A DNA stretch of 64,000 bases, taken from the NCBI GenBank assembly GCA_003142595.1, contig PLMU01000003.1:6501-70500 (forward strand), written 5' to 3'. The DNA is from Phycisphaerales bacterium (GTDB lineage: Bacteria > Planctomycetota > Phycisphaerae > Sedimentisphaerales > UBA12454). Positions 2 to 48,744 of this stretch are shown in pieces. A program made the position numbers and the translations under genes. How positions within the stretch are numbered: the first letter of the stretch is position 1; each line of letters opens with the position of its first letter. Below the pieces are notes generated by a model that ran no database searches, was not told where the DNA came from, and worked only from the letters and a program-made list of their open reading frames with translations.

Positions 2-655
2 ACGCTGGTGCCTGTTATCGGTTTTGTTCAGGTTGGCAGCCAGGCTATGGCCGATAGGTACAGCTATATTACCCTGACAGGTTTGTTTATTATTATCGCA
101 TGGGGCTTGCCAGAATTGCTGGCAAAATGGACTTCGGCAAGTTCAGTCGGGGCGCGACGTAGAAAAATTGCGCTTCAGACAGCCGGATATACTGTTTTGT
201 GCGTCTTGGCCTCTATTACATACATTCAAACGGGATACTGGAAAAACACTCTGACGCTTTCCGGGCACGCTGTCGAAGTAACCGAAGATAACTTCCTGGG
301 TAATGTCGGTGTGGCGCAGGAATTATTTAAACAGCATCAAATCGAGCAGGTAATCGGGTATTTCTCCGAGGCTATCCGAATCAAATCCGACTACGCCGCC
401 GCTTTCAACGGTCTAGGGGTCGCTCTGTGTTATGCGGGAAGAATCGATGAGGCTATCGTTAATTTCAATAAGGCTCTGGCATTAGAACCTGAAAATGCCT
501 CTGCTCACAACAATCTTGGTATAGCGATTGGCTCGCAGGGAAAATACGACGAGGCTATCGTGCATTTTAAGAAGGCACTGCAAATTGACCCGCAATTTAT
601 CGACGCAAAGAATAATCTCAATCTTGCACTAACAAAAATAAATCAAAAAAAATAA
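2..655 (+). CDS. C-terminal part (5' end outside window) of a TMTC-like membrane glycosyltransferase/TPR protein, paralog of the 3957-13415 array
   Basis: Reading frame of track ORF 8..655 is open to the window edge. It aligns with the last third of the downstream paralogs (VIGFVQVGSQA.ADRY.YI, GLFIIIAWGLPELLAK, then TPR units). Confidence 0.8.
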   Translation, partial: TLVPVIGFVQVGSQAMADRYSYITLTGLFIIIAWGLPELLAKWTSASSVGARRRKIALQTAGYTVLCVLASITYIQTGYWKNTLTLSGHAVEVTEDNFLGNVGVAQELFKQHQIEQVIGYFSEAIRIKSDYAAAFNGLGVALCYAGRIDEAIVNFNKALALEPENASAHNNLGIAIGSQGKYDEAIVHFKKALQIDPQFIDAKNNLNLALTKINQKK

Positions 656-656
656 A

Positions 657-1325
657 TCACTTCTTCAATATCAGGCAATACAAAAGCCCCAGAAACTTTG
701 TTTGGCCTATTTTAAATAACGTTGGCTGGGCCATTGACTGGAAATCGGCCTGACTGTAAAAGGGCTCTTCGAAACTGTGGAGCCAAAAGAGGGTTGTTCT
801 AAACCATCCAAATTGGCGTTTGCAATCGGCCAGAATTGTTTCGGGGGTATCGCTGACAAGGTCGTAAACAAGCACAAAGCCGCCCGGTTTGAGAACGCGA
901 TACGCTTCGTTAAGCCCTTCTGTCGGATGCTTCCAGTGATGCATCGAGACGGTGCTGATGACTATATCAAAATAATTATCAGGATATGGAATCTTGTCGG
1001 CGTTGCCATCTTTTATCTCTATCGACTGGACGCCTGAGGTATTCTCTTTGGCCTTGGCGACCATGGCAGGCGATGAATCGATGCCGAGGAGGCGCAATTG
1101 AGGCGATTTATTATGAAGTGTCAGAAGCAGCCGGGCAGGACCGGTGCCGATATCCAAAAGCGTGCCGCTGCTGCAATAGTTCAATATATCGTCGGCGACC
1201 ATTTGGTAATGACGCTGAAATATTACAGTTGAACTTATCGCGTTATAGAGAACCGAGCCGGGCCATGGAATCGACTCGGGATGAAGACGCTTCATTAGTC
1301 TGCCCATCAGAGAATGTTTTGCCAT
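657..1325 (-). CDS. class I SAM-dependent methyltransferase
   Basis: LLDIGTGPARLL glycine-rich SAM motif; LRLLGIDSSPAMV; VLKPGGFVLVYD. Typical Methyltransf_11/25 layout, 222 aa. Confidence 0.8.
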   Translation of the reverse strand: MAKHSLMGRLMKRLHPESIPWPGSVLYNAISSTVIFQRHYQMVADDILNYCSSGTLLDIGTGPARLLLTLHNKSPQLRLLGIDSSPAMVAKAKENTSGVQSIEIKDGNADKIPYPDNYFDIVISTVSMHHWKHPTEGLNEAYRVLKPGGFVLVYDLVSDTPETILADCKRQFGWFRTTLFWLHSFEEPFYSQADFQSMAQPTLFKIGQTKFLGLLYCLILKK

Positions 1326-1339
1326 TGTATCCAGTCCTG

Positions 1340-1594
1340 TTACGCGGTGATTATGTAAACGTGGTCGCCTTTACGGACCTTGTCGAGGACTTTAATTCCG
1401 ATTGAGTCGCCGGGGTTGGCCTGGGTAACATTTACATTATTGACCTGCATTGAGCTTATCGTCATCTCGAGGTCGGTTGTGTGGCCCTTGATTTTAATTT
1501 TGTCGCCGACTTTCAAGGCCCCTGTCAGCTCAATTCCGGCTACTACCGGCTTTGCAAAAAAATCCGATACTTTTCCAATAATTTCCTCGCTCAT
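1340..1594 (-). CDS. small EF-Tu domain-2-like beta-barrel protein (translation elongation factor-like protein)
   Basis: G.LKVGDKIKIKG...V.SMQV....V..A.PGDSIGIKV.....KGD pattern typical of GTP_EFTU_D2. Start moved to the ATG at 1594, which is preceded by AAGGAG. Confidence 0.6.
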   Translation of the reverse strand: MSEEIIGKVSDFFAKPVVAGIELTGALKVGDKIKIKGHTTDLEMTISSMQVNNVNVTQANPGDSIGIKVLDKVRKGDHVYIITA

Positions 1595-1796
1595 TTTCAG
1601 CTCCTTTCCATTCATTGTTTTATTTAGTATACTTTTATTATTCTATCGCCGGTATTTTCCTCACGCAAGAGGCAAAACCGACAAAAAAGCCCATTTTCCT
1701 GAGCCTTAAATGTATTGTAAATCCGCAGAAAAAATGGTAAAATAGCTTTTAAATCATTCGGCGGTTATCGGCCGAACGCAAAACAAGGAGTTATAT

Positions 1797-3299
1797 ATGC
1801 GCAATAGAGCTTTTTCTGTGTTTGCGGTTTTTGCAGCGGCTGTATTGCCGGCTGCTGTAATGTGCTGCGGTCAAACCGATTCAAATGAACCTAATAAACC
1901 TAATCATTTTTCCGAGGTGCTGCTTGGCACGGTGTCCAATCAAATACTTCACGCTGTCCGCAGCATCGATAATCGGCATATTGCCCTTGTAACCGCCAAA
2001 GGCTCCAAGATTCAGGTTATCGTCGATGGCAAAGTTGAGCCGGAGTATGACAGTCTTATGGAAGGCGCTCTTCTTTTCAGCCCCGACAGCAATCATATGG
2101 CATACCTGGCCAGAAAGGACATAAGATGGCTTGTTGTTGCCGATGGCAAACCAGGAGCGGAATATGACGGCATCAACAAAGAAACTATCGCCTTCAGCCC
2201 CGACAGTAAACGCCTGGCTTACGTTGCAAGAAAAGCAGTCAAATATGTCGTTGTCACTGACGGCAAGAACAGCCCGGATTATAACGGCATTGTAACAAGC
2301 TCTTTTTTCAGCCCCGATAGTAAACATACCGCGTATGCCATCCAGAAGACCGGAAAATGGCAGCCTGTTATTGATGGAAATGCCGGACCGGAATACGAAC
2401 GAATCGGCTTTATCGTTTTCAGCCCCGATGGCAAGCGAGTGGCTTACGTTGCAGTAAACAAAGGCAGACCATTGGTCGTTACCGACGGAAATGCCGGACC
2501 GGGGTATGATTTTATTATGGAAAAAACTCCTATCTTCAGCTCGGATAGTCAGCACCTGATTTATGCAGGTAAAAAAGGCGACAAATGGCAGGTCGTTGTC
2601 GATGGCCAGAGCGGCCCTGAATACGATGGCATCGGCAAAGGACTTCCTCCTATTTTCAGTCCTGATGGAAAAAAAACAGTCTATATAGCCAGAAAAGAAT
2701 ATAAATGGCTGGTCGTCATTGATGGTAATGCCCAGCCGGAATGTGCCGACGTCCAGGAAGGCTCGCTCCTCTTCAGCCCCGACAGCAAACGATTGGCCTA
2801 CGTCGCCGGAATAGCTGGCAAATGGGCGGTTATCGTGGACGGAAAAGCACAATCCCAGTACGATGATATTATGGCAGGAAGTCTCTGTTTCAGTCCCGAC
2901 AGCAGTCGCCTGGCGTATGTCGCAATAAAGGGAATTAAAAAAACGGTCGTTGTCGATGGCCAGGCCGGCGTGGAATACTCCGGAATTATCCCTCCTGTTT
3001 TCAGTCCCGACAGCAAACGTTTAGCATATATAATTCAGAAAGACAAAAAATGGGCCGTCATCGTAGATGGCCAGTCCGAACGGGAATATGACGGAATTAC
3101 CCCAATTGTTTTCAGCAAGGACAGCAAAAAAATAGCTTACGGCATACAGAATAACGCTAAGTGGCAGCTCGTCGTTGATGCTGATGCAGGCCCGATATAT
3201 GATGCTTTTGTGTGCAGCCCCACAACGTCCGGCGAAAATGGTTTTGGGGCAATTGCCGTTCGAGACAATACGTTTTATCGAACGTTATGGAAACCGTAA
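1797..3299 (+). CDS. secreted or lipoprotein with about 11 tandem PD40/TolB-type (WD40-like) beta-propeller repeats
   Basis: AAGGAG SD 6 nt upstream. N-terminal signal peptide ends AAVMCCGQ. About 38-aa units repeat FSPDSKRLAYVA.K..KW.VVVDGK.GPEYDGI. Confidence 0.8.
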   Translation: MRNRAFSVFAVFAAAVLPAAVMCCGQTDSNEPNKPNHFSEVLLGTVSNQILHAVRSIDNRHIALVTAKGSKIQVIVDGKVEPEYDSLMEGALLFSPDSNHMAYLARKDIRWLVVADGKPGAEYDGINKETIAFSPDSKRLAYVARKAVKYVVVTDGKNSPDYNGIVTSSFFSPDSKHTAYAIQKTGKWQPVIDGNAGPEYERIGFIVFSPDGKRVAYVAVNKGRPLVVTDGNAGPGYDFIMEKTPIFSSDSQHLIYAGKKGDKWQVVVDGQSGPEYDGIGKGLPPIFSPDGKKTVYIARKEYKWLVVIDGNAQPECADVQEGSLLFSPDSKRLAYVAGIAGKWAVIVDGKAQSQYDDIMAGSLCFSPDSSRLAYVAIKGIKKTVVVDGQAGVEYSGIIPPVFSPDSKRLAYIIQKDKKWAVIVDGQSEREYDGITPIVFSKDSKKIAYGIQNNAKWQLVVDADAGPIYDAFVCSPTTSGENGFGAIAVRDNTFYRTLWKP

Positions 3300-3323
3300 A
3301 CTTTTTTCGGCTATAATCATTAA

Positions 3324-3767
3324 CTATTGTTTGATTCTCAAAAGCTTAAATCCGCTCGCAGGGTCGGTTTCTCTTACTGCGTCAATTCCGTCTATTTCAA
3401 TAATCGTTACTTCAAGGATTAAAAATATGCTCGCCCCACCGCGCGGACAGCCGACAATATGATTACCCCCCCTGCCCAGTCCGGCGTGCAAATGCAATTT
3501 AGGTTTGCCTGTATCGTCGTAATAAATTGTACCGACGCCGAAAGTCTCGCCCGGCCCTTCGAAATTTACAAAATTCGCCTCTATCCTCGGCTTTTCAGTC
3601 TTCGGCCCGACAACTACATCAGCTTTTCTGATTCCGCCGGTTATCAGGACCGCTGCTGATTTTATTTTTTCTTTTTCAGCAATTGATTCGATTGAGCCGT
3701 AAAGATTTTCGCCCTCAAAGAGCCGCGCCGCGATAACTCTGCCCACTCTGCCAACCGCATATTCCAT
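3324..3767 (-). CDS. PPC (DUF296) domain protein
   Basis: 147 aa with an AGGAGA SD. KLHLHAGLGRGGNHIVG..RGG segment resembles the H.H....GGH core of PPC/DUF296 proteins. Confidence 0.55.
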   Translation of the reverse strand: MEYAVGRVGRVIAARLFEGENLYGSIESIAEKEKIKSAAVLITGGIRKADVVVGPKTEKPRIEANFVNFEGPGETFGVGTIYYDDTGKPKLHLHAGLGRGGNHIVGCPRGGASIFLILEVTIIEIDGIDAVRETDPASGFKLLRIKQ

Positions 3768-3920
3768 ATCTATCTCCTGTAAAACTTTAAAACCTTAACC
3801 AATCGAATAGTTTACTGTAAAAAACAATATGATTAAAGAGAAAAGTTGGTTTAGATCAGCCTCGCTGCCTGCGACGGCGGTTTGTCATTCTTATACACAG
3901 ACCGTAACTGGTTTTGCTCC

Positions 3921-3949
3921 TTGACAACAAATGTTCGTGTAAATATATT
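3921..3949 (+). promoter_or_regulatory. sigma70-type promoter TTGACA-N17-TATATT; the -10 ends 7 nt before the ATG (leaderless geometry)
   Basis: TTGACA at 3921-3926, 17-nt spacer, TATATT at 3944-3949, ATG at 3957, no SD between them. The same block recurs at 5739 and 11694. Confidence 0.55.
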
Positions 3950-3956
3950 ACTGTCT

Positions 3957-5663
3957 ATGCCCGAACAGGTAAAAAAAACTCTTGTCATTTCAATTTATTT
4001 CGCCTTAACAGTCAGTGCATTGCTGGTCTTCTGGCAGGTCAGGAATTTCGATTTTATCAATTATGACGATAAGGATTATGTATCTCAAAATCCCTATGTT
4101 TTAAACGGCCTGACCGCAGGCGCCGCCCGGTGGGCTTTTACGACCGGCCATGCGGGAAACCGGCTTCCTTTGACCTGGCTTTCGCTTATGCTCGATTGTC
4201 AATTGTTTGGCCCCAACGCAGGCAGGATTCATCTTATAAATCTCCTTTTGCACATTGCAAATACCCTGCTGCTCTTTACGGTTCTTAAAAAAATGACCGG
4301 CGCTCTTTGGCAAAGTGCTTTTGTGGCCGCTCTCTTTGCTCTCCACCCGCTTCATGTCGAATCTGTTGCCTGGATAGCGGAACGCAAAGATGTATTAAGC
4401 ACTTTCTTTTGGATGTTGACGTTACTTGCCTATTTTGTTTATGTCAGCCGTCCATCTGTATTTCGATATATTGTGACTCTTGCAGCCTTTGCGCTGGGCC
4501 TTATGGCCAAGCCTATGCTGGTAACATTGCCTTTTGTATTGCTTTTGCTGGACTATTGGCCGCTTGACCGTATTGGCCGTTTTCAATTGCGGACACTCAA
4601 TCGTTTGATTCTGTCCGCAGGACGCCTCACGGCGGAAAAAATCCCTTTTATTGTTATTTCGATTGCATCAAGTGTCATCACCTTTCTTGGCCAGCAAAGC
4701 AGCAAGGCAGTAATATCATTTGCCCAGTTCCCTTTAAAGTTTCGCATCGGCAACGCCTTTATTTCTTATGCCAGGTATATAGAAAAAATGATTTGGCCAA
4801 GCCGCCTGGCCGTGTTTTATCCGCATCCCTATGAAACCGTATCTGTTTCATATGTTGTAATATCAGCCATTCTGCTATTGGCCGTAACGATTCTTGTAAT
4901 TCGATTCGCCAAAAATCACCGATACCTCGTTACTGGCTGGTTTTGGTATCTTGGAACGCTCATACCCGTCATTGGCATTGTTCAAGTCGGTTTGCAGGCC
5001 TATGCCGACCGTTATACTTATATTCCATATATAGGCCTGTTCATAATGCTTGCATGGGGTTTGCCGCAGCTTCTTTCAAAATTGATTTATCGGAAAATCG
5101 CTCTTGGCTTATCGATGGCAATTGTGCTGACGACTTTCGGAATATGTGCTCATCGGCAAGTAAGCTTTTGGAATAACAGTATCACCCTTTTTTCGCACGC
5201 CATCGAGGCAACGCAAAACAATTATATTGCGTATAATAATCTTGGCAATGCTTACAACGGTATTGGTCGCTATCAGGAGGCGATAGAGGAATTCAGACAA
5301 GCCATAAAAATCAGGCCGTATTATGCAGATGCCTACTATAATCTTGGCCTTGCTTACGGCAATCTTAGCCACCACACCGAGGCTATAGAGGCCTTTAAGC
5401 AGGTCATAAAAATCAAGCCGGATGATGCCGAGGCATACTATAATCTTGGCAATGCCTACTACGCCCTTGGCCGCAGCCCCGAGGCGATAGATGCCTATCA
5501 GCAGGCCATAAAAATCAATCCAGATAATGCCGATGCACACGCCAATCTTGGCGTTGCTTACCTGGCGATAGGCGACAAAAATTCCGCTCTGGCAGAATAT
5601 AATATTCTTAAGTCTTTAAACTCAGAACTTGCAAATGATCTCTTAAACCAGATTAACAAATGA
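3957..5663 (+). CDS. TMTC-like GT-C membrane glycosyltransferase domain + 4 TPR (array copy 1)
   Basis: The polytopic N-domain carries NYDD in the first loop and HPLHVESVAWIAERKDVLSTFFW. Four 34-aa TPR units follow, then the conserved tail AYLAIGDKNSALAEYNILKSLNSELAN. Start taken at the Met homologous to the other copies (MPEQVKKTLV). Confidence 0.85.
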   Translation: MPEQVKKTLVISIYFALTVSALLVFWQVRNFDFINYDDKDYVSQNPYVLNGLTAGAARWAFTTGHAGNRLPLTWLSLMLDCQLFGPNAGRIHLINLLLHIANTLLLFTVLKKMTGALWQSAFVAALFALHPLHVESVAWIAERKDVLSTFFWMLTLLAYFVYVSRPSVFRYIVTLAAFALGLMAKPMLVTLPFVLLLLDYWPLDRIGRFQLRTLNRLILSAGRLTAEKIPFIVISIASSVITFLGQQSSKAVISFAQFPLKFRIGNAFISYARYIEKMIWPSRLAVFYPHPYETVSVSYVVISAILLLAVTILVIRFAKNHRYLVTGWFWYLGTLIPVIGIVQVGLQAYADRYTYIPYIGLFIMLAWGLPQLLSKLIYRKIALGLSMAIVLTTFGICAHRQVSFWNNSITLFSHAIEATQNNYIAYNNLGNAYNGIGRYQEAIEEFRQAIKIRPYYADAYYNLGLAYGNLSHHTEAIEAFKQVIKIKPDDAEAYYNLGNAYYALGRSPEAIDAYQQAIKINPDNADAHANLGVAYLAIGDKNSALAEYNILKSLNSELANDLLNQINK

Positions 5664-5738
5664 AAAAGTAACCTTTGCAGGACTTAGGACTTTTACTGCT
5701 CGGCATTCTTACAGGCTGACCGTAACTGGTTTTGCTTC

Positions 5739-5767
5739 TTGACAATAAATGTTTGTGTAAATATATT
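5739..5767 (+). promoter_or_regulatory. sigma70-type promoter TTGACA-N17-TATATT, leaderless geometry
   Basis: TTGACA at 5739-5744, TATATT at 5762-5767, ATG at 5775. Confidence 0.55.
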
Positions 5768-5774
5768 GTTGCCT

Positions 5775-7820
5775 ATGCCCCAACAGGTAAAAAAAACTCT
5801 TGTCATTTCGATTTATTTCGCCTTAACAATCAGTGCATTGCTGGTTTTTTGGCAGACCAGAAATTTCGATTTCGTCAATTATGACGATAATACTTATGTA
5901 TCTGAAAATCCTCACGTTCTAAACGGCCTGACTTTCGACAATATCATTTGGGCTTTTACGGCCGGCCACGCGGGAAACTGGCACCCTTTGACCTGGCTTT
6001 CGCTTATGCTCGATTGCCAGTTGTTCGGTACCAACGCAGGCTGGATGCATCTTGTAAATCTCCTTTTGCACCTTGCAAATACTCTGCTGCTCTTTACGGT
6101 TCTGACTTCGGCAAGCTCAGTCGAGCCTAAAAAAATGACCAGCGCACTGTGGCCAAGCGCATTTGTAGCTGCGGCCTTTGCACTTCACCCGATGCATGTC
6201 GAATCGGTCGCCTGGATTACTGAGCGCAAGGACGTTTTAAGCACTTTTTTTTGGCTGCTTGCGATGTTAGTGTATGTGCGGTATATTAAGCAGCCCACCG
6301 CTGCGCGATACCTGCTTGTCTTATTAATTTTCGCTTTTGGTCTTATGGCAAAGTCTATGCTGGTTACTTTGCCGTTTGTATTTCTTCTGCTGGACTATTG
6401 GCCGCTTAATCGAATAAACGGTTTTAACTGGAAAATAATATACCGGTTAATTTTGGAGAAAATCCCTTTCATCTTTCTATCAGCGGTCTCAAGCGTTATC
6501 ACCTTTTTGGTTCAGCGAAAAAGCGGTGCGATGCCGGGCATTAATATTAATGGTCTTCCTTTGAAGGCCAGGACTGTCAATGCCTTCTTATCTTACGCAA
6601 GATACATAGGGGAAATGTTCTGGCCGCAAAATATGGCGGTATTTTATCCTTTTGACGCCGGCAGCTTTGCGTTCCGGCAGGTGGCGATGTGTGTTTTGCT
6701 GCTGCTTGTTATGTCCATTTTTGTGATTCGTTTCGGACGAAATCAAAAGTATTTGCCTGTAGGCTGGTTTTGGTTTGTCGGAACACTTGTGCCTGTCATA
6801 GGATTTGTTCAGGTTGGCTCGCAGGCCTATGCCGACCGTTACACTTATGTCCCGTATATAGGCCTGTTCATAATGCTCGCATGGGGTCTGCCCGAGTTGC
6901 TGGCAAAATTGCTTTCGGCGAGCCCGGTCGAGTCGCCTCAACGAAAAATCGCTCTCGGCTTATCTATGGTGATTGTGCTGACGACTCTCGGAATATGTGC
7001 CCATCGACAGACAAGTTATTGGAAAAACAGTTTTACACTTTTTTCGCACGCACTGGCGGTAACACAAAACAATTATGTCGCATACGGTAATCTTGGCGTT
7101 GCTTACGTTAATCTCAACAGTTACAACAAGGCGATAGATGCCTATCAGCAGGCCATAAAAATCAATCCGGAATACGCCTTTGCATATCATGCTCTTGGTG
7201 TTGCCTGCGCCAAACTCAGCCGTTATCAAGATGCTATAGAATCCTATAAACAAGCTATCAGGATAAAGCCGGATGAGGCAGATGCACACTATAATCTTGG
7301 CAATTCTTATGCTAAGCTTGGCCGCTGGCCCGAGGCGATAGATGCCTATAAGCAGGCCATAAGAATCCAGCCCGATTTAGCCGATGTATACAGAAATCTT
7401 GGCAATGCCTACGCCAGACTTGGCCGTTATCAAGACGCTATAGAATTCTATAAACAAGCTATCAGGAGAAAGCCGGATGATGCCGAGGCAGAGTTTGACC
7501 TTGGTAATGCCTGCTACGCCCTTGGCCGCCGGCCCGAGGCGATAGAGACATTCAGGCAGGCCATCGGAATCAAGCCGGATTACGCCGAAGCATACTATAA
7601 TCTTGGCATTGCTTATGACGACCTTGGCCGATATGCCGAGGCGATAGATGCCTATAAGCAGGCCGTCAGAATTAAGCCGGATGACGACGAGGCTCACTGT
7701 AGGCTTGGCGCTGCTTACCTGGCGATTGGCGACAAAAATTCCGCTCTGGCAGAATATAATATTCTTAAGTCTTTGAACTCAGAACTCGCAAATAAACTCT
7801 TAAAAGAGATTAACAAATGA
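5775..7820 (+). CDS. TMTC-like GT-C membrane domain + 7 TPR (array copy 2)
   Basis: Same N-domain motifs (NYDD, HPMHVESVAWITERKDVLSTFFW). Seven TPR units. Carries two copies of the 24-nt mini-insertion. Confidence 0.85.
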   Translation: MPQQVKKTLVISIYFALTISALLVFWQTRNFDFVNYDDNTYVSENPHVLNGLTFDNIIWAFTAGHAGNWHPLTWLSLMLDCQLFGTNAGWMHLVNLLLHLANTLLLFTVLTSASSVEPKKMTSALWPSAFVAAAFALHPMHVESVAWITERKDVLSTFFWLLAMLVYVRYIKQPTAARYLLVLLIFAFGLMAKSMLVTLPFVFLLLDYWPLNRINGFNWKIIYRLILEKIPFIFLSAVSSVITFLVQRKSGAMPGININGLPLKARTVNAFLSYARYIGEMFWPQNMAVFYPFDAGSFAFRQVAMCVLLLLVMSIFVIRFGRNQKYLPVGWFWFVGTLVPVIGFVQVGSQAYADRYTYVPYIGLFIMLAWGLPELLAKLLSASPVESPQRKIALGLSMVIVLTTLGICAHRQTSYWKNSFTLFSHALAVTQNNYVAYGNLGVAYVNLNSYNKAIDAYQQAIKINPEYAFAYHALGVACAKLSRYQDAIESYKQAIRIKPDEADAHYNLGNSYAKLGRWPEAIDAYKQAIRIQPDLADVYRNLGNAYARLGRYQDAIEFYKQAIRRKPDDAEAEFDLGNACYALGRRPEAIETFRQAIGIKPDYAEAYYNLGIAYDDLGRYAEAIDAYKQAVRIKPDDDEAHCRLGAAYLAIGDKNSALAEYNILKSLNSELANKLLKEINK

Positions 7821-9637
7821 AAACGCAACTTATGTCCGAACAGGCAAAAAAAACTCTTGTCCTTTCTATTTATTTCGCCTTGGCAGTCAGTGCGTTGCTG
7901 GTTTTCTGGCAGGTCAGAAACTCCGATTTCGTCTATTATGACGATGACGATTACGTATCTGCAAATCCCCATGTTTTAAACGGCTTTTCCCCCAGCAATC
8001 TGGCCTGGGCTTTTACCACCAACCTCTCGTCCCACTGGCATCCTTTGACATGGTTTTCGCTTATGCTCGATTGTCAATTGTTCGGCCCCAACGCAGGCAG
8101 GATTCATCTTATAAATCTCCTTTTGCACATTGCAAATACCCTGCTGCTCTTTATAGTTCTAAAAAAAATGACAGGCGCACTTTGGCAAAGCGCATTCGTG
8201 GCGGCTCTGTTTGCACTTCACCCACTTCACGTCGAATCCGTCGCCTGGATTGCTGAGCGAAAAGATGTATTAAGCACTTTCTTTTGGCTGCTTGCGATGT
8301 TGGCGTATGCGCAATATGTCAAAAAGCCCGACGCCGCGCGATACCTGCTTGTCTTATTAATTTTCGCTTTGGGTCTTATGGCAAAACCTATGCTGGTTAC
8401 TTTACCGTTTGTGCTGCTGCTGCTCGATTATTGGCCGCTCGAACGGATAGGCCGTTTTAGTCGGCAAATTTTTTATCGTTTGGTTTTGGAAAAGGTTCCT
8501 TTCTTCGCTCTTTCAGTCATCTCAAGTATTATCACCTTTTTAGTTATGCGAAGCGGTGGCACGGTGAGTGATATCTTTTCTTTGAACAGCAGAATCGCCA
8601 ACGCTTTTTTATCCTATGCAGAATATATCAGTAAAATGTTCTGGCCGTGCAATCTGGCAGTATTCTATCCTTTTAACGCCGGAAGTATTTCATTCGGGCA
8701 GGCTGCGATATGTGCTTTGCTGCTGCTTGTTATATCCATTTTTGTAATTCGTTTTGGACGAAATCAAAAGTATTTACCGATGGGCTGGTTCTGGTTCGTC
8801 GGAACACTTGCCCCGGTCATCGGCATTGTTCAGGTCGGCCGGCAGGCTTATGCCGACCGTTACACTTATATCCCATATATAGGTCTGTTCATAATGCTTG
8901 CATGGGGTTTGCCGCAGCTTCTTTCAAAATTGCTTTCGGCGAGCCCAGTCAAATCGCCTCAACGAAAAATCGCTCTCGGCTTACCGATGGTAATTGTGCT
9001 GACGACCCTGGGAATATGCGCCTATCAGCAGACAAGCTATTGGAAAAATAGTGTTACCCTATTTTCGCACGCACTGGCGGTAACACAAAACAATTATGTC
9101 GCATACAATAATCTTGGCATTGCTTACGTTGATCTTGGCCGCTGGCCCGAGGCGATAGATAACTGTAAGCAGGCCATAAACATCAAGCCGAATTTAGCCG
9201 AAGCACATGCCAATCTCGGCATTGCTTATGCTGCCCTTGGCCGCTTGCCCGAAGCGATAGACGCCTATAAGCAGGCCATAAACATCAAGCCGGATTTCGC
9301 CAAGGCATATTATAATCTCGGCGTTGCTTACGGCGAGCTTGACCGCAGCACCGAGGCTATAGAAGCCTTTAAGCAGGCCATACTTATCAAGTCAGATTAC
9401 GCCAAGGCATACCTTAATCTTGGCGTTGCTTACGGCAAGCTTGGCCGATTGCCCGAGGCGATAGAGGCCTTTAAGCAGGCCATAAAACTTAAGCCGGATT
9501 ATGTTGAGGCGCACAAAAATCTTGGCACTGCTTACCTGGCGATAGGCAACAAAAATTCCGCTATGGCGGAATTTAATATTCTTAAGTCTTTGAACTCAGA
9601 ACTCGCAAATAAACTCTCAAAAGAGATTAACAAATGA
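7817..9637 (+). CDS. TMTC-like GT-C membrane domain + 5 TPR (array copy 3)
   Basis: ATGA start/stop overlap with copy 2. YYDDDDY loop and HPLHVESVAWIAERKDVLSTFFW. Five TPR units. Confidence 0.85.
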   Translation: MKTQLMSEQAKKTLVLSIYFALAVSALLVFWQVRNSDFVYYDDDDYVSANPHVLNGFSPSNLAWAFTTNLSSHWHPLTWFSLMLDCQLFGPNAGRIHLINLLLHIANTLLLFIVLKKMTGALWQSAFVAALFALHPLHVESVAWIAERKDVLSTFFWLLAMLAYAQYVKKPDAARYLLVLLIFALGLMAKPMLVTLPFVLLLLDYWPLERIGRFSRQIFYRLVLEKVPFFALSVISSIITFLVMRSGGTVSDIFSLNSRIANAFLSYAEYISKMFWPCNLAVFYPFNAGSISFGQAAICALLLLVISIFVIRFGRNQKYLPMGWFWFVGTLAPVIGIVQVGRQAYADRYTYIPYIGLFIMLAWGLPQLLSKLLSASPVKSPQRKIALGLPMVIVLTTLGICAYQQTSYWKNSVTLFSHALAVTQNNYVAYNNLGIAYVDLGRWPEAIDNCKQAINIKPNLAEAHANLGIAYAALGRLPEAIDAYKQAINIKPDFAKAYYNLGVAYGELDRSTEAIEAFKQAILIKSDYAKAYLNLGVAYGKLGRLPEAIEAFKQAIKLKPDYVEAHKNLGTAYLAIGNKNSAMAEFNILKSLNSELANKLSKEINK

Positions 9638-11625
9638 AAAAGCAGCCTATGCCTCAACAGGCAAAAAAAACTCTTGTCCTTTCTATTTATTTCGCCTTAG
9701 CCTTCAGTACATTGCTGGTCTTCTGGCAGGTCAGGAATTTCAATTTCGTCCATTGCGATGATAATGATTACGTATCTAAAAATCCAAACGTTTTAAACGG
9801 TCTCACACCCGCCGCTGTCTCTTGGGCTTTTACAACCGATGTGTCCAGTCATTGGCATCCGCTGACATGGCTGTCGCTTATGCTCGATTGTCAGTTATTC
9901 GGAGCCAATGCAGGCGGGATTCATCTTGTAAATCTCCTTCTGCACATTGTAAATACCTTGCTGCTTTTTGCTGTTCTCAAAAAAATGACCGGCGCTCTTT
10001 GGCAAAGCGCGTTTGTGGCGGCTCTGTTTGCCCTTCACCCGCTTCACGTTGAATCGGTAGCATGGATTTCAGAACGAAAAGATGTATTAAGCACTTTTTT
10101 CTGGCTGCTGACAATGTTGGCGTATGTGCTGTATGTCAAACAGCCGAATGCCGCCCGATACCTGCTGACGATGTTGATGTTTGCTCTGGGCCTGATGGCC
10201 AAGCCGATGCTGGTAACTTTGCCATTTGTGCTTTTACTTTTGGACTATTGGCCATTCCAGCGGAAAATATCCCGGCATCTGCTGGTGGAAAAAATCCCTT
10301 TATTTGCTCTTGTTGCCGTTTCAAGTGTCGTTACTTTTATGGTGATGCGAAGCGGCGGAGCATTAATTAAGATGGATACGCTTCCTCTGAACAGCAGGAT
10401 TGCAAATGCTGTTTTATCTTACGTCAAATATCTATACAAAATGTTCTGGCCGCGGAACCTGGCGATATTTTATCCATTTGGCGCATCTGCAAGTTTCCCA
10501 TTTTGGCAGGTTGCGATGTGTGTTTTGCTGCTGCTTGTTATATCTATTTTTGTAATTCGGCTTGGACGAAATCAAAAGTATTTGCCCCTCGGCTGGTTCT
10601 GGTTTATCGGAACACTTGTGCCTGTAATCGGCATCATTCAGGTTGGTCAGCAGGCCTATGCGGATCGTTATACCTATGTCCCCTATATAGGTCTGTTCAT
10701 AATGATCGCATGGGGTCTGCCGGTGCTTCTTTCGAAATTGCCGCAGCGGAAAATCGCTCTGGGCCTATCTATGGTGATTGTGCTGACGACCCTGGGAATA
10801 TGCGCTCATCAGCAGACAAGCTATTGGAAAAACAGCGTTACTCTTTTTTCGCACGCGCTGGAGGTAACTCAAAAAAATTGGCTCGCATATAATGACCTTG
10901 GCCTTGCTTACGACGATCTTGGCCGCAGCGCAGAGGCGATGGAGAATTTCAGCCAGGCAATAAGAATAATACCGGATTATGCCGAAGCGCATACTAATCT
11001 CGGCATCGTTTACACCAAACTTGGCCGCTGGCAGAATGCTATAGATGAACATAAGCAGGCTATAAAATTCAAGCCGGATTTAGCTTTGGCACACAACAAT
11101 CTCGGCATTGTTTACACAAAGCTTGGCCGCTGGCAGGATGCTATAGATGCCTATAAGCAGGCCATAAAAATCAAGCCGGATTTAGTAGAGGCGTACAATA
11201 ATCTTGGCTATGCTTATTCCGCTCTTGGCCGCCATGCTGAGGCGATAGAGGCCTATAACCAGGCCATAAAATTCAAGCCGGATTTCGTAGACACACACTA
11301 TAACCTTGGCAATGCCTACTACGCCCTTGGCCGCTACCCCGAGGCAATAAATGTCTTCGAGCAGGTCATCAGAATAAAGCCGGATTATGCCGAGGCACAC
11401 TATAATCTCGGCATGACTTATTCCGCCCTTGGCCGCTGGCCCCAGGCGATAGATGCCTATAAGCAGACCATAAAATTAAAGCCAGATTTGGCCATGGCGC
11501 ACGAAAATCTTGGCGTTGCTTACCTTGTAGTAGGCGACAAAAATTCCGCTCTGGCCGAATATAATATTCTTAAGTCTTTAAACTCAGAACTTGCAAATAA
11601 TCTCTTAAATCAGATTAACAAATGA
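9634..11625 (+). CDS. TMTC-like GT-C membrane domain + 7 TPR (array copy 4)
   Basis: ATGA overlap with copy 3. HCDDNDY loop and HPLHVESVAWISERKDVLSTFFW. Seven TPR units. Confidence 0.85.
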   Translation: MKKQPMPQQAKKTLVLSIYFALAFSTLLVFWQVRNFNFVHCDDNDYVSKNPNVLNGLTPAAVSWAFTTDVSSHWHPLTWLSLMLDCQLFGANAGGIHLVNLLLHIVNTLLLFAVLKKMTGALWQSAFVAALFALHPLHVESVAWISERKDVLSTFFWLLTMLAYVLYVKQPNAARYLLTMLMFALGLMAKPMLVTLPFVLLLLDYWPFQRKISRHLLVEKIPLFALVAVSSVVTFMVMRSGGALIKMDTLPLNSRIANAVLSYVKYLYKMFWPRNLAIFYPFGASASFPFWQVAMCVLLLLVISIFVIRLGRNQKYLPLGWFWFIGTLVPVIGIIQVGQQAYADRYTYVPYIGLFIMIAWGLPVLLSKLPQRKIALGLSMVIVLTTLGICAHQQTSYWKNSVTLFSHALEVTQKNWLAYNDLGLAYDDLGRSAEAMENFSQAIRIIPDYAEAHTNLGIVYTKLGRWQNAIDEHKQAIKFKPDLALAHNNLGIVYTKLGRWQDAIDAYKQAIKIKPDLVEAYNNLGYAYSALGRHAEAIEAYNQAIKFKPDFVDTHYNLGNAYYALGRYPEAINVFEQVIRIKPDYAEAHYNLGMTYSALGRWPQAIDAYKQTIKLKPDLAMAHENLGVAYLVVGDKNSALAEYNILKSLNSELANNLLNQINK

Positions 11626-11693
11626 AAAAGTAACCTTTGCAGGACTTTTACGGTTCATCATTCTTACACACCGACCGTAACTCGTTTTGTTTC

Positions 11694-11722
11694 TTGACAA
11701 CAGATGTTTGTGTAAATATATT
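11694..11722 (+). promoter_or_regulatory. sigma70-type promoter TTGACA-N17-TATATT, leaderless geometry
   Basis: TTGACA at 11694-11699, TATATT at 11717-11722, ATG at 11730. Confidence 0.55.
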
Positions 11723-11729
11723 GTTGCCT

Positions 11730-13415
11730 ATGCCCCAACAGGTAAAAAAGCCTCTTGTCATTTCGATTTATTTCGCCTTAGCAATCAGTGCATTGCTGGT
11801 CTTCTGGCAGGTCAGAAATTTCGATTTCGTCAATTACGATGACGATTTGTATGTATATGAAAATCAGCATGTTGTAAGCGGTCTGACTTTCGACAATATC
11901 ATTTGGGCTTTTACGACCATTCACACAGGCTACTGGCATGCCTTAACCTGGCTTTCGCTAATGCTCGATTGTCAGTTGTTTGACCCCAACCCTGAAGGTT
12001 TTCATCTTACTAATCTTTTCTTTCACATCGCAAACACTTTGCTTCTTTTCCTTGTCCTCAAACAAATGACAAAAGCACTTTGGCAAAGCGCATTTGTGGC
12101 GGCTCTGTTTGCACTTCATCCGATGCATGTCGAATCGGTCGCCTGGATTGCCGAACGCAAGGACGTCCTGAGCACTTTCTTTTGGCTGCTTGCGATGTTA
12201 GCGTATGTGCGGTATGTCAGCCGCCCCAACGCCGCGCGCCACCTGCTTGTCTTATTAATTTTCGCTTTAGGTCTTATGGCAAAGCCTATGCTGGTAACAT
12301 TGCCGTTTGTGTTGCTTTTGCTGGACTACTGGCCGCTTGACCGTATTGGCCGTTTTCAATTGCGGACACTCTATCGTTTGATTCTGGAAAAAATCCCTTT
12401 TATTGTTCTTTCAATTGTTTCAAGTGCCATCGTTTTTCTTGTCCAGCAGAGCAGCAAGATATTAATACCATTTGCCCGGTTCCCTTTAAAGTTTCGTATC
12501 GGTAATGCCTTTATCTCTTATGCCAGGTATATAGAAAAAATGATTTGGCCAAACTACCTGGCCGTGTTTTATCCTCACCCTGTTGAAAACGTATCAATTT
12601 TATACGCTGTAATATCAGCCATTCTGCTATTGGCCGTAACGATTCTTGTCCTTCGATTCGCCCAAAATCGCAGATATCTTGTCACAGGCTGGTTCTGGTA
12701 TCTTGGAATGCTCATCCCCGTCATCGGCATTATTCAGGTTGGTGCGCAGGCCTATGCCGACCGTTACACTTATATCCCATATATAGGTCTGTTCATAATG
12801 CTTGCATGGGGTTTGCCGCAGCTTCTTTCAAAATGGCCTCAACGAAAAATCGCTCTGGGCTTATCGATGGTGATTGTGCTGACGGCCCTGGGAATATGCG
12901 CCCATCGGCAGGTAAGCTATTGGAAAAACAACGTTACTCTTTTTTCGCACGCACTGGAGGTCACACAAAATAATTGGCTAGCACACAATAATCTTGGCAA
13001 TGCTTACGCCAGGCTTGGCCGTTACGAAGAAGCAATAGATGCTTATCAGCAGACCATAAAGCTCAATCCGGATTTAGCCGAAGCACCTAATAATCTTGGA
13101 ATTGTTTACGGCAAGCTTGGCCGCTTGCCCGAGGCGATAGATGCCTTCAGCCAGGCCATAATAATAGATCCGGATTACGTCAAGGCACACTATAATCTTG
13201 GCGTTGCTTACGATAAGCTTGACCGCTTGCCCCAAGCGATAGATGCCTATAAGCAGGCCATAAAAATCAAGCCGGATTTAGCCGAAGCGCACAATAAGCT
13301 TGGCGTTGCTTACTTGGTAGTAGGCGACAAAAATTCCGCTCTGGCAGAATATAATATTCTTAAGTCTTTGAACTCCCAACTCGCAAATAATCTCTTAAAT
13401 CAAATTAACAAATAA
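11730..13415 (+). CDS. TMTC-like GT-C membrane domain + 4 TPR (array copy 5)
   Basis: NYDDDLY loop and HPMHVESVAWIAERKDVLSTFFW. Four TPR units. Same C-terminal tail. Confidence 0.85.
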   Translation: MPQQVKKPLVISIYFALAISALLVFWQVRNFDFVNYDDDLYVYENQHVVSGLTFDNIIWAFTTIHTGYWHALTWLSLMLDCQLFDPNPEGFHLTNLFFHIANTLLLFLVLKQMTKALWQSAFVAALFALHPMHVESVAWIAERKDVLSTFFWLLAMLAYVRYVSRPNAARHLLVLLIFALGLMAKPMLVTLPFVLLLLDYWPLDRIGRFQLRTLYRLILEKIPFIVLSIVSSAIVFLVQQSSKILIPFARFPLKFRIGNAFISYARYIEKMIWPNYLAVFYPHPVENVSILYAVISAILLLAVTILVLRFAQNRRYLVTGWFWYLGMLIPVIGIIQVGAQAYADRYTYIPYIGLFIMLAWGLPQLLSKWPQRKIALGLSMVIVLTALGICAHRQVSYWKNNVTLFSHALEVTQNNWLAHNNLGNAYARLGRYEEAIDAYQQTIKLNPDLAEAPNNLGIVYGKLGRLPEAIDAFSQAIIIDPDYVKAHYNLGVAYDKLDRLPQAIDAYKQAIKIKPDLAEAHNKLGVAYLVVGDKNSALAEYNILKSLNSQLANNLLNQINK

Positions 13416-16569: not shown

Positions 16570-16586
16570 TGGAGATAATCTAATCC

Positions 16587-16675
16587 GGAGAGGTGTTCGA
16601 GCGGCTGATGTTGCTGGTTTCGAAAACCAGTGTGCTCTTTACCGAGTACCGCGGGTTCGAATCCCGCCCTCTCCG
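16587..16675 (+). tRNA. tRNA-Ser (anticodon CGA), class II with long variable arm, no encoded CCA
   Basis: Acceptor GGAGAGG pairs with CCTCTCC. Anticodon stem CTGGT/ACCAG has loop TTCGAAA. T-arm is CGGGTTCGAATCCCG. A long variable arm is present, and a T-run follows. Confidence 0.9.
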
Positions 16676-16708
16676 TTTTTAAGTTTCGATAAAAAAGGGG
16701 AATTGAAA

Positions 16709-26067: not shown

Positions 26068-27225
26068 ATGAAAACAGAGATTTTGAAAATAGAGGACCAT
26101 ATAAAGGATATCGAGGCATTAAAAAAAGCCGCTGATTGCGTCGATTCGGGCGGGCTGGTCGTGTTCCCCACCGAAACGGTCTACGGCATCGCCTGCAAAG
26201 CTGATAAAAAAAGCTTAGAGCGACTCGATGAAGTAAAAAAAAGAGATACGGAAAAAAGATACACCCTGCACATCGGCGATAAAAATAAACTGTCCGATTT
26301 TGTCCCCGCTGGGACGAGTCTGACTCCTCCGGCAAAAAAACTCGTAAAAATCGGCTGGCCGGGACCGCTTACAATTGTTTTTGAAATCAACCAAAAAGAC
26401 TTTGCCATGCTTGTCCCGTTAGAGACAGGCCGCCACGGTCGGCCGACAGGCGTCATTGACGACTCGTCTCTAATGGGACTTTACAAAGACAATACCATCG
26501 GCATCCGCTGTCCGGAAAATGATATAGCACGCCAGTTTCTAAATCTATGCAAAAACGCGATAGTAGCCCCGAGCGCAAATACCGCCGGCAAAGAGCCGGC
26601 GACAAACGCCCAGGACGCGATAGAGCAACTCGACGGAATAGTTGATATGATTATCGATGGAGGAACGTGCAAATATAAAAAGAGCAGTTCGGTAGTGAAA
26701 ATTTCGTCGGCGGGCTGGGAAGTTCTGAGGGAAGGAGTATTTTCCAAAAGGCAGATACAAAAAATGCTCACTGTAAATATTCTTTTTGTCTGCACGGGAA
26801 ATACCTGCAGAAGCCCTATGGCGGCAGGCTTTGCAAAAAAAGCATTGGCCGAAAAACTTGGATGCAATATTGACCAGTTGGGGCAGATGGGGTATAAGGT
26901 AGCTTCCTGCGGCATTTCAGCGACGAATGGCATTGGCGCAACTAATTATGCCATAAAGGTTTGTGATTCGAGGAATGCGGATATATCCAATCACAAAAGT
27001 AGAAATATTACGGCAGAAATGATTAAAGAAGCTGATTATATTTTTACGATGTCAGAAGGACAAAAAAGTGATATAATCCAGCTTTCGCCGGACGGGCGGC
27101 AGAAGTGTATGCTGTTGGATGAAAATAAAAATATAAATGACCCTATCGGCGGCGATTTTGAAACGTATAAGATATGCGGTCAAATAATAGAAAAAGCAGT
27201 TATTAAAAGGATAAGCGAGCTATGA
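26068..27225 (+). CDS. tsaC: fusion: L-threonylcarbamoyladenylate synthase (TsaC/YrdC) domain + low-molecular-weight protein phosphatase (YwlE-like) domain
   Basis: The N-terminal part has GGLVVFPTETVYGIAC and APSANTAGKEP. From about aa 234 it has ILFVCTGNTCRSPMAAG (CX5R P-loop) and DPIGGD (general acid). There is one uninterrupted frame. Confidence 0.85.
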   Translation: MKTEILKIEDHIKDIEALKKAADCVDSGGLVVFPTETVYGIACKADKKSLERLDEVKKRDTEKRYTLHIGDKNKLSDFVPAGTSLTPPAKKLVKIGWPGPLTIVFEINQKDFAMLVPLETGRHGRPTGVIDDSSLMGLYKDNTIGIRCPENDIARQFLNLCKNAIVAPSANTAGKEPATNAQDAIEQLDGIVDMIIDGGTCKYKKSSSVVKISSAGWEVLREGVFSKRQIQKMLTVNILFVCTGNTCRSPMAAGFAKKALAEKLGCNIDQLGQMGYKVASCGISATNGIGATNYAIKVCDSRNADISNHKSRNITAEMIKEADYIFTMSEGQKSDIIQLSPDGRQKCMLLDENKNINDPIGGDFETYKICGQIIEKAVIKRISEL

Positions 27226-29897: not shown

Positions 29898-29980
29898 AAA
29901 TTTTTAATTTTTAATATTGAATTGAGGAACCGCTGAGTGCGGGTTAAAGTTAAAAACTAAAAGTGAATAGTGAAAAGTTT

Positions 29981-41737: not shown

Positions 41738-42844
41738 ATGGAAAGGCAGAAAATGAAAAAGAAAGGCTTTACACTGGTTGAATTGCTGGTGGTTATCGCC
41801 ATTATAGCAATGTTGCTGGCAATCCTTATGCCGGCTTTGAGCAAAGTAAGACAGCTTGCTCAACGTATTATGTGCAGCACGAACCTGTCAGGTATCGGCA
41901 AGGCGATGCTGACTTACAGCACAGATGACAAATATGAATCTTTCCCGATATCCGGAAGCCCCAGCGCTTATTGGGACAGGGGCAGCGGCACAAAGGCAGG
42001 TATTTGTTCATGGAACTGGATAGATCCAAAAGCATTTCCGGAAACAGTAGCCTCCACTGCTTACAGGGCCACCGTTAGTTCATGTCTCTATCTGCTTATA
42101 AAATACGCAGATGTATCGTCCAACCAATTCATTTGCCCGGGTTCAGACATGAAAAAATTCGAATTGAAAAATTATAATATGGGCAGCGACGTATTTGCAA
42201 ATAATACTTCAACTGATGTGTGGGATTTCGGCTCGAAACTCGGACTAAGTGGAGTAGGTGGAGAAAAAACACCAGGAACCCGGGGTAAAGGACATCAAAG
42301 TTATTCTTATGAGCTGCCTTTTGTATTTAATGGGATTAAGGACAATGGGAGTGCTAAGGCAAGCGTCACCGCAAGCTGCCATCCTGCAACGGCCACATCT
42401 AATCCTTCCAAGGCTGTTCTGGCTGACAGAAACCCATACTGGCAATATCCTTCTGATTCCGGAAGAACTACGGCTTTTCTATATGTATGGGATTCTACAA
42501 GCAACAGGGTACACCCGAGTTCTATTGCTAAAGGAAACGCCATATATCATCAAAGCGATGGCCAGAACGTTCTCTATGTTGACCAACATTCAAAATTCGA
42601 AAAAGGTGCTAATTGCGGCATTGAATCGGATAACATTTACACTACCTGGAGTTCGTCGCTTGGTGGTCCTGCTACCCCAGGAGTAATTGGTAACGGTGAA
42701 GAAAAATTTAGACAGTGCGGAGCAGGCGCGGCGAACTATCCTGCTAGCTCTCCTGTGCTGAATGTTGAACCAGGGGATGATTCGTATTGGCCGGTTAGTG
42801 GAGACGACAACTATCTGGTTTCCGACCTGGATAGTGATGTTTAA
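41738..42844 (+). CDS. prepilin-type N-terminal cleavage/methylation domain protein (DUF1559-like pseudopilin)
   Basis: KKGFTLVELLVVIAIIAMLLAILMPAL prepilin signal. The C-terminal GQNVLYVDQHSKF resembles the H-X9-DG tail of the DUF1559 family. Confidence 0.8.
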   Translation: MERQKMKKKGFTLVELLVVIAIIAMLLAILMPALSKVRQLAQRIMCSTNLSGIGKAMLTYSTDDKYESFPISGSPSAYWDRGSGTKAGICSWNWIDPKAFPETVASTAYRATVSSCLYLLIKYADVSSNQFICPGSDMKKFELKNYNMGSDVFANNTSTDVWDFGSKLGLSGVGGEKTPGTRGKGHQSYSYELPFVFNGIKDNGSAKASVTASCHPATATSNPSKAVLADRNPYWQYPSDSGRTTAFLYVWDSTSNRVHPSSIAKGNAIYHQSDGQNVLYVDQHSKFEKGANCGIESDNIYTTWSSSLGGPATPGVIGNGEEKFRQCGAGAANYPASSPVLNVEPGDDSYWPVSGDDNYLVSDLDSDV

Positions 42845-44298: not shown

Positions 44299-44327
44299 AA
44301 GATAATCCCTTATCAACCTAAATATTT

Positions 44328-48552: not shown

Positions 48553-48744
48553 TGTTCGGTCTCCATACATAAAAATTAACAACTTAATTGCTTTAGCCTG
48601 AAACCAGGCACAATTTACATTAAAAACGTTTGCGCGTTTTAAAGTCGATTCGATAGCCACAAAGCTTGCCCGCCTTAGGCGGGGTACTAATACATAGAAT
48701 CTAAGCTAATGACTAATTGATTGTTTTCTCGACCCCGATTAAAT

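Follow-up and report, generated by a model that had tools for sequence, protein, structure and literature searches.

Animal TMTC1-4 (CAZy family GT105) are dolichyl-phosphate-mannose (Dol-P-Man) protein O-mannosyltransferases acting on cadherins and protocadherins, and mutations in the human enzymes cause brain malformation and hearing loss. Full-length prokaryotic homologues of TMTCs have already been noted and are uncharacterised (PMC7801869). Bacterial protein O-glycosylation outside the cytoplasm, in which a GT2 enzyme is combined with a glycosyltransferase of the C fold class (GT-C), is known from the Pgf and GtrB/PgtC systems (PMC12041528). Here we analysed a window of 64,000 nucleotides from a Phycisphaerales bacterium (assembly GCA_003142595.1, contig PLMU01000003.1, positions 6,501 to 70,500 of the forward strand), which carries seven genes for TMTC-like membrane proteins with C-terminal tetratricopeptide repeats (TPRs), five of them in a contiguous array. 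On balance, we favor the reading that the proteins are inner-membrane GT-C glycosyltransferases, belonging to a bacterial sister family of TMTC, which transfer a lipid-linked monosaccharide in the periplasm, probably to proteins chosen by the TPRs.

TMTC-like genes of the window

A preliminary description drawn from the letters of the window had reported five complete same-strand genes at 3957-13415 and a divergent seventh at 44662-47160, and the listing of open reading frames (ORFs) returned the same coordinates. In this listing all seven family genes encode a hydrophobic, polytopic N-terminal domain (N-domain) of ~400 aa followed by 3-11 TPRs. They are given below with their scores against Pfam PMT_2 (PF13231; gathering cut-off 26.1 bits) and against hidden Markov models (HMMs) of the family and of animal TMTCs.

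8..655, + strand: g0, C-terminal 215 aa of a family member of 537 aa that the window start truncates; final transmembrane (TM) helices and ~3 TPRs
3957..5663, + strand: g1, 568 aa; predicted TMTC-like GT-C domain (~1-410) and ~4 TPRs; PMT_2 30.2 bits, family HMM 660 bits, animal TMTC HMM 72 bits
5775..7820, + strand: g2, 681 aa; predicted TMTC-like GT-C domain and ~7 TPRs; no PMT_2 match, family HMM 664 bits, TMTC HMM 79 bits
7817..9637, + strand: g3, 606 aa; predicted TMTC-like GT-C domain and ~5 TPRs; PMT_2 30.8 bits, family HMM 675 bits, TMTC HMM 80 bits
9634..11625, + strand: g4, 663 aa; predicted TMTC-like GT-C domain and ~7 TPRs; PMT_2 38.7 bits, TMTC HMM 86 bits
11730..13415, + strand: g5, 561 aa; predicted TMTC-like GT-C domain and ~4 TPRs; PMT_2 23.4 bits (below cut-off), family HMM 674 bits, TMTC HMM 81 bits
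44662..47160, + strand: g7, 832 aa; divergent member with ~11 TPRs in a separate chromosomal context; N-domain without Pfam match, family HMM 452 bits, TMTC HMM 53 bits

The similarity of these genes is real and far beyond chance: identity among g1 to g5 is 67-79% for the N-domain and 62-75% for the TPR part, and g7 is ~32% identical to them. The TPR units appear as 102-nt periodic repeats, and in g2 the TM2-TM3 loop is lengthened by an insert of 8 aa. The acidic and HPxHVESVAWI signatures quoted in the preliminary description were all found together with the C-terminal TPRs, with differing signature forms in g0 and g7. The acidic motif reads NYDD in g1, g2 and g5, YYDDDD in g3, HCDD in g4, SFDD in g7 and TFDD in g0. 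The signature common to g1-g5 is HP(L/M)HVESVAWI(A/T/S)ERKDVLSTFFW, its version in g0 is HPLHVESVAWVSERKDVLSTFFW, and the diverged version in g7 is HPLTVETIPWIGERKTLLAAFF.

Sequence kinship with animal TMTCs

To compare the family with TMTCs, we used the published TMTC1-4 N-domain alignment from the supplement of Eisenhaber et al. 2021 (PMC7801869) and a bacterial N-domain profile built from 17 diverse sequences. In hmmsearch the bacterial profile scored human and fly TMTC1-4 at 69-104 bits and ArnT from the same file at -6 bits. Profile-profile alignment (hhalign) of the bacterial family with TMTC gave a probability of 99.8% and an E-value of 9e-29 at 23% identity over 374 aligned columns, that is, the whole N-domain. 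When the animal TMTC profile was run against all ORFs of the window, it recovered only g1-g5 (72-86 bits) and g7 (53 bits), the next best ORF reaching 3.5 bits. By sequence, then, the family genes are true TMTC homologues, closer to TMTC than to ArnT or PMT.

The conserved motifs correspond along the alignment: DD to DD, WHPLT to YRPLT (part of motif M2), HPLHVESV..ERKD to HPIHTEAV..GRAD (M3), AKPMLVT to VKETGIT (M4) and ADRYTY.P to AERVLY.P (M7). The DD of M1 is invariant in the bacterial family; of M2 (SHKSYRP) only (W/Y)(H/R)PLT is retained; the RxD of M3 is present as ERKD; M4, KE(T/Q)xxT in TMTCs, keeps its Lys and Thr and has lost its Glu; and ERxxY of M7 appears as DRYTY. The DD pair (g4 residues 42-43, in the loop after TM1) is invariant in the 106 of 106 members with the N-terminus present, and aligns with the TMTC DD and with ArnT D55/E56 in the published alignment. 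Across 121 aligned members from many phyla, DD, H135, E140, R148, K190, D344, R345 and Y348 (g4 numbering) are near-invariant, as is the cytoplasmic D204-x-W-P motif. W-H-P-L-T, the counterpart of the TMTC SHKSYRP motif, is found in 110 of the 112 members in which this position could be aligned. Among the copies of the window, g1 only has RLPLT at this place (residues ~66-72, window 4150-4170), a change that may alter its activity or sugar specificity.

The DUF1736 loop of TMTCs, between TM7 and TM8, corresponds to the fourth extracytoplasmic loop (EL4), where most TMTC-to-profile alignments skip or align poorly, and its DNP and DW signatures are absent from the 121 aligned members. The position of the DW Asp is occupied by F, L, Y, I, V or P and is never acidic; that of the KE(T/Q)xxT Glu is never acidic either and is Pro in 102 of the 121. 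These two residues are the modelled metal ligands of TMTCs (PMC7801869), and both are thus replaced by non-ligands (Pro, Phe/Leu), so catalytic details may differ from those of TMTC. Because the DUF1736 loop signatures and the modelled metal ligands are missing, the family is filed here as a bacterial sister family of TMTC, outside the DUF1736-defined family.

Of the two Pfam models proposed for this comparison in the preliminary description, PF13231 passes its cut-off for g1, g3 and g4, and DUF1736 (PF08409) has no match at E<=1 among the six N-domains. The earlier assignment to a DUF1736-type membrane domain with TPRs is supported for the TMTC kinship and the TPRs and not for DUF1736 itself. 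NCBIfam contains no model for the N-domain. Searching the PDB by sequence with the N-domain found nothing, either as a single sequence or as the 17-sequence profile, and the full-length profile retrieved TPR proteins only.

Predicted fold and membrane topology

The full-length AlphaFold2 (AF2) model of g4, the protein used for all structure models, has a mean predicted local distance difference test (pLDDT) of 86 and a predicted TM-score (pTM) of 0.79. In FoldSeek it matched only TPR structures (OGT, SPINDLY and designed CTPRs); because these matches swamped the search, an N-domain-only model was built, at the cost of lower confidence (pLDDT 68, pTM 0.72). Ranks 1-27 of this model against the PDB are all GT-C enzymes (STT3, PglB, AglB, Pmt4, Pmt1/2, ArnT, DPY19 and EmbB), with E-values of 3e-4 to 8e-2 and query TM-scores of 0.34-0.49. 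These matches, in line with the fold proposed earlier for the locus, give support of moderate strength to a GT-C fold of the N-domain.

The helices of the g4 model define 11 TM segments, with the N-terminus placed in the cytoplasm by the positive-inside rule, since Lys and Arg are enriched in the loops assigned to the cytoplasm (18 of 70 residues, 0.26) relative to the periplasmic loops (11 of 172, 0.06). In this topology the DD loop (EL1), as the preliminary description had supposed, and likewise EL2, EL3, EL4, EL5 and the TPR domain are predicted to be periplasmic, as in TMTCs.

Evolution of the array and probable enzymatic activity

The N-domains of the copies have a synonymous divergence (dS) of 0.6-1.0, which marks the duplications as old. 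The ratio of nonsynonymous to synonymous divergence (dN/dS) is 0.14-0.24 in the N-domain versus 0.38-0.64 in the TPRs, which indicates that the putative catalytic core is under purifying selection. Nucleotide identity along the codon alignment is mosaic: g1 and g3 are 99% identical over columns 76-105, g1 and g5 over columns 211-240, and g3 and g5 over columns 361-390, each stretch spanning 30 codons (90 nt), in pairs that are ~75% identical overall. Such stretches suggest repeated gene conversion among the paralogs of the array. The array would have arisen by tandem duplication of a gene together with its promoter, with gene conversion keeping the mosaic.

These data also bear on whether the proteins are enzymes at all. 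They could be TPR scaffolds or chaperones on a degenerate, inactive GT-C anchor, with the array a recent amplification without functional differentiation. TMTC1 and TMTC2 were themselves first described as TPR adaptors, their transferase role being recognized later; the loss of the two modelled metal-ligand residues and the departure of g1 from the near-invariant W-H would fit such a relic as well. However, DD and about ten other periplasm-facing polar residues are near-invariant across phyla, the N-domain is more constrained than the TPRs, and the dS values speak for old duplications and not for a recent amplification. The conservation of the polar residues in 121 members and the low N-domain dN/dS argue for an active enzyme; a non-enzymatic role appears unlikely from the sequences, and the scaffold explanation as a whole strikes us as highly improbable.

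Conservation is lowest in EL1 immediately behind DD, in the cytoplasmic loop that follows DYWP, in EL4 and in the TPRs. In other GT-C enzymes (PglB, ArnT, PMT) EL1 and EL4 line the acceptor side. The variability in TPR number, EL1 and EL4, together with the TPR dN/dS, is consistent with divergent acceptor specificity and with the earlier suggestion that each paralog may recognise acceptors of its own through its TPRs: the paralogs would share their chemistry and differ in their acceptors, with TPR number, EL1 and EL4 diverging accordingly.

Proposed donor, acceptor and mechanism

Gene neighborhoods were compared in foreign loci, for which all statistics refer to the best 80 loci in species-representative genomes. 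All-against-all clustering of ~900 neighboring ORFs identified two GT2 families as the most recurrent conserved neighbors. The first has full-length similarity to ArnC (184 bits) and PgfS (147 bits), the second resembles AglJ, PpgS and dolichyl-phosphate hexose transferases, and nine of these GT2 genes lie <900 nt from a family gene. Enzymes of the ArnC/AglJ type make polyprenyl-phosphate monosaccharides, and by analogy we infer that the donor is a polyprenyl-phosphate monosaccharide.

In the mechanism that we propose, a cytoplasmic GT2 enzyme would load one sugar onto polyprenyl phosphate, which would then be flipped to the periplasm. There, a pocket formed by EL1 (DD and W-H-P-L-T), EL2 (HPxHVE...ERKD), EL3 (Lys190) and EL5 (D-R-x-x-Y) would hold the phosphate and the sugar; the conservation of these residues is observed, and their binding role is taken over from TMTC, ArnT and PMT. 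The first Asp would activate the acceptor hydroxyl, and the TPR arm, by analogy with TMTC and OGT, would select the acceptor, most likely among exported proteins. Exported proteins are favored by three features: the presence of a TPR arm, the relationship to TMTCs, which modify proteins, and the number of paralogs.

An alternative keeps the fold and the donor and changes the acceptor to a glycan or lipid, such as lipopolysaccharide (LPS) or lipid A, exopolysaccharide, peptidoglycan or another envelope polymer. The proteins would then work like ArnT or as part of a Gtr-type three-component system, with the TPRs docking on an export or assembly machine. Periplasmic TPR modules are indeed typical of polysaccharide export proteins (BcsC, PelB, AlgK), an FtsW/RodA gene lies just downstream of the array, and the top conserved neighbors elsewhere are ArnC-like; moreover, pairs of a GT-C enzyme and an ArnC/GtrB-like GT2 commonly modify periplasmic glycoconjugates (PMC11127046; Mann & Whitfield 2016, as presented in a paper citing it). 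Nevertheless, the sequence kinship is with protein-modifying TMTCs and not with ArnT (104 versus -6 bits), no polysaccharide or LPS cluster surrounds the array, and 5-7 paralogs of varied TPR length are more easily explained by many protein acceptors than by one polymer. We regard a glycan or lipid acceptor as the less likely reading, yet as a serious rival.

Several observations weigh against transfer to proteins by a TMTC-like enzyme, the reading preferred here. Besides the missing PF08409 match and the replaced metal ligands, the confidence of the N-domain model is modest and its FoldSeek E-values are no better than 3e-4. The GT2 association is seen in only ~10 of the 80 foreign loci, and no donor-synthesis or flippase gene was found among the ORFs scanned in the window. 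The protein acceptor is argued from the TPRs only, and the window yielded no candidate acceptor of cadherin type. In the searched literature there is no characterised bacterial TMTC homologue and no biochemistry of any bacterial member.

Distribution of the family and arrays in other genomes

A scan of 1.84 billion representatives with the N-domain retrieved 84,775 clusters (50% identity) at E<=1e-3 and 21,348 at E<=1e-30. The family, already described in the preliminary account as uncharacterised in bacteria, is thus a huge one of ~85,000 clusters. Its genes are usually annotated as 'tetratricopeptide repeat protein' or, wrongly, as 'pilus assembly protein TadD/PilF', and some relatives are named 'protein O-mannosyl-transferase' by the Joint Genome Institute (JGI). 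The 80 foreign loci, at 45-67% identity, belong to Planctomycetota, Desulfobacterota, Nitrospinota, Acidobacteriota, Verrucomicrobiota, Gemmatimonadota, Hydrogenedentota, Myxococcota, Armatimonadota and Nitrospirota.

Counting family genes within +-10 kb, 51 loci hold one copy, 13 hold two, 7 hold three, 5 hold four, 3 hold five and 1 holds six, so that 2-6 copies occur in 29 of the 80 loci, in several phyla. The array of the window had been called an extreme local expansion; with five contiguous copies and one nearby, it is the upper end of a common pattern and no outlier. Within the array itself, strain copy-number variation was considered and rejected: the shorter gene with which one matching contig (L007) terminates is g3 (99.6% identity), truncated by the contig boundary and not by a deletion.

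In five foreign loci (L070 3851-6010, L026, L051, L052 and L068; Acidobacteriota, Udaeobacter and Vicinamibacterales) a second, different PMT_2-type GT-C gene lies <=300 nt from the TMTC-like gene, and the domain scan of the one at L070 found TPRs in it as well. Different GT-C families thus appear to cluster together.

A broader proposal, which we put forward tentatively, is that the family represents the prokaryotic stock of the eukaryotic TMTCs and performs a widespread and so far unrecognised periplasmic protein O-glycosylation, specific for domains or clients, in Planctomycetota, Verrucomicrobiota, Acidobacteriota, Desulfobacterota and further groups. The chemistry would do without the Glu/Asp ligand pair, and the arrays would constitute acceptor repertoires shaped by TPR gain and loss and by gene conversion. 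Should the function proposed above hold, a very large family found in most major environmental bacterial phyla would lie behind an uncharacterised periplasmic glycosylation system. The family is the prokaryotic group most closely related to the human TMTCs, and a tractable bacterial member might yield a first experimental structure and mechanism in the TMTC branch of GT-C. Its family-wide loss of the modelled metal ligands is a concrete test of the TMTC metal model, and the array, whose copies combine a common core with differing TPRs and loops, would provide natural specificity variants for mapping acceptor choice. The family and such arrays are already visible in public data; the interest lies in family size and the link to human TMTCs, not in the rarity of the locus.

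Boundaries, promoters and neighboring genes

The window matches public metagenome contigs identically, and on one of them (L005) g0 is complete: 537 aa at 10671-12284 on the - strand, with 616 bits to the family HMM and the motifs FDD, NWHPLT, HPLHVESVAWVSERKD, AKPMLVT and ADRYSY. The preliminary description had seen a truncated sixth copy at the window start: the fragment at 8-655 is present, but it belongs to a complete gene standing apart from the five. A Fic-domain gene (291 aa, L005 12281-13156) lies just upstream of window position 1 and overlaps the g0 start by 4 nt, so that the two are probably co-translated. Farther upstream of the Fic gene follow two DNA methyltransferases, an ICEA-like gene and an EcoRII-C-like gene, which form a restriction-modification island. 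Since the full-length g0 is preceded by these genes, the array ends on this side and does not continue upstream, as had been thought possible. Four unrelated ORFs separate g0 from g1:

657-1325, - strand: methyltransferase
small ORF
1797-3299, + strand: PD40 beta-propeller repeat protein, 500 aa, with signal peptide and ~12 tandem PD40-type repeats (FSPDSKRLAYV...W.VVVDG...EYD)
3324-3767, - strand: PCC-domain gene, between the PD40 gene and g1

The best NCBIfam match of the PD40 protein, TmcD_fam (179 bits), is below cut-off. A role of this protein as a conserved partner was rejected, because elsewhere it is no recurrent neighbor of the family genes.

Within the array, only g3 (on g2) and g4 (on g3) overlap the preceding stop by 4 nt (ATGA) and are thereby translationally coupled. 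A leader of ~85 nt is conserved 5' of g1, g2 and g5 and contains promoter-like sites:

3921..3949, + strand: TTGACA-17-TATATT, 11/12 matches, -10 element ending 7 nt 5' of the g1 ATG
5739..5767, + strand: TTGACA-17-TATATT, -10 element ending 7 nt 5' of the g2 ATG
11694..11722, + strand: TTGACA-17-TATATT, -10 element ending 7 nt 5' of the g5 ATG

Given the conserved leaders and the overlaps, the transcription units are likely g1, g2-g3-g4 and g5, with the promoter lying within the duplicated unit. No Shine-Dalgarno sequence is present between the -10 element and the ATG of these three genes (3921-3956, 5739-5774, 11694-11729), and as the -10 element ends 7 nt before the ATG, g1, g2 and g5 may be transcribed as leaderless mRNAs. 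The promoter spacer also contains an imperfect palindrome, ACAAA-TG-TTTGT, whose mismatch differs among the three copies; we do not claim it as an operator.

Two paralogous secreted PEP-CTERM proteins (VPEP...LLGLGGL...RRRK; 20-21% Ser/Thr) are encoded near g7 at 48028-48660 and 49741-50244, both on the - strand. Beside them are a gene for a lipoprotein (47221-47883) and one for a secreted protein of 439 aa (50347-51666). Secreted proteins near g7 are conceivable acceptors. The PEP-CTERM proteins were rejected in this role: such neighbors occur in only 10 of the 80 foreign loci, which is no clear enrichment given how common PEP-CTERM proteins are in those phyla. Upstream of g7, the gene at 41738-42844 (+) encodes a 368-aa protein with a prepilin-type N-terminal methylation motif, a weak DUF1559 match and 18% Ser/Thr, of a type abundant in Planctomycetota. 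In the product of 43036-44316 (-), a ParA/MinD-type ATPase (AAA_31, CbiA) is fused, in an unusual combination, to a glycogen-binding CBM48/AMPK1_CBM domain at the C-terminus.

The remainder of the window is ordinary chromosome, with glycine cleavage genes, aconitase, AlaRS, RecA, GltX, HisD, PEPCK, LigA and RibD, and homologues named in NCBI indicate an uncultured member of the Sedimentisphaerales (Planctomycetota). The sole RNA gene detected in the window, by ARAGORN and Rfam, is tRNA-Ser (CGA) at 16586-16676 (+). Two further proteins combine domains: pentapeptide repeats with a C-terminal two-TM ion-channel domain (Ion_trans_2; 29963-31270, +), and a Sua5/YciO/YrdC domain (threonylcarbamoyl-AMP step of tRNA modification) fused to a low-molecular-weight phosphotyrosine phosphatase domain (26068-27225, +).

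Comparison with characterized glycosyltransferase systems

The animal TMTCs share with the family an 11-TM GT-C domain followed by extracytoplasmic TPRs, and the common motifs can be written as DD, (Y/W)xPLT, HPxH(T/V)E(A/S)V...R(A/K)(D/E)(L/V)L, KxxxxT and (E/D)RxxYxP. They differ in that most bacterial copies have fewer TPRs (4-7) and face the periplasm instead of the endoplasmic reticulum (ER), where the carrier would be a bacterial polyprenyl phosphate.

ArnT (GT83; undecaprenyl-phosphate-L-Ara4N:lipid A transferase, PDB 5ezm/5f15) resembles the family in its GT-C fold, in a periplasmic first-loop acidic residue, in an EL3 Lys without a following Glu, and in the ArnC-like GT2 partner seen in other genomes. 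However, it scores -6 bits against the family profile, and it has 13 TM helices, a small soluble C-terminal domain without TPRs and a lipid acceptor. The PMT enzymes (GT39; yeast Pmt1/2/4 and actinobacterial Pmt) were matched by FoldSeek (Pmt4 9i5k and 9e6i, Pmt1-Pmt2 6p25) and also have a first-loop acidic pair. With a polyprenyl-phosphate-mannose donor and protein Ser/Thr acceptors on the extracytoplasmic side, they resemble the function proposed here, but they lack TPRs and have a luminal MIR beta-trefoil built into one of their loops, and only the generic PMT_2 model matches weakly (23-39 bits).

The C-terminal part finds its best structural matches in the TPRs of OGT and SPINDLY (E 1e-14, 26-28% identity), in which a TPR superhelix is the acceptor-selecting module of a glycosyltransferase. 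These enzymes differ as soluble, cytoplasmic GT-B proteins (GT41) using nucleotide sugars, and the resemblance is confined to the TPR module.

The logic proposed for the family is that of PgfS/PgfM1/PgfM2 of S. mutans and GtrB/PgtC2 of S. pyogenes, in which the sugar is first linked to polyprenyl phosphate by a GT2 enzyme and then passed by a GT-C enzyme to Ser/Thr-rich regions of exported proteins (PMC12041528; PMC5856776). Those systems are Gram-positive and use GT-C proteins assigned to other families (such as YfhO) without TPRs; the likeness to the Pgf system extends to the partner enzyme, a PgfS-like GT2 being a recurrent neighbor of family members.

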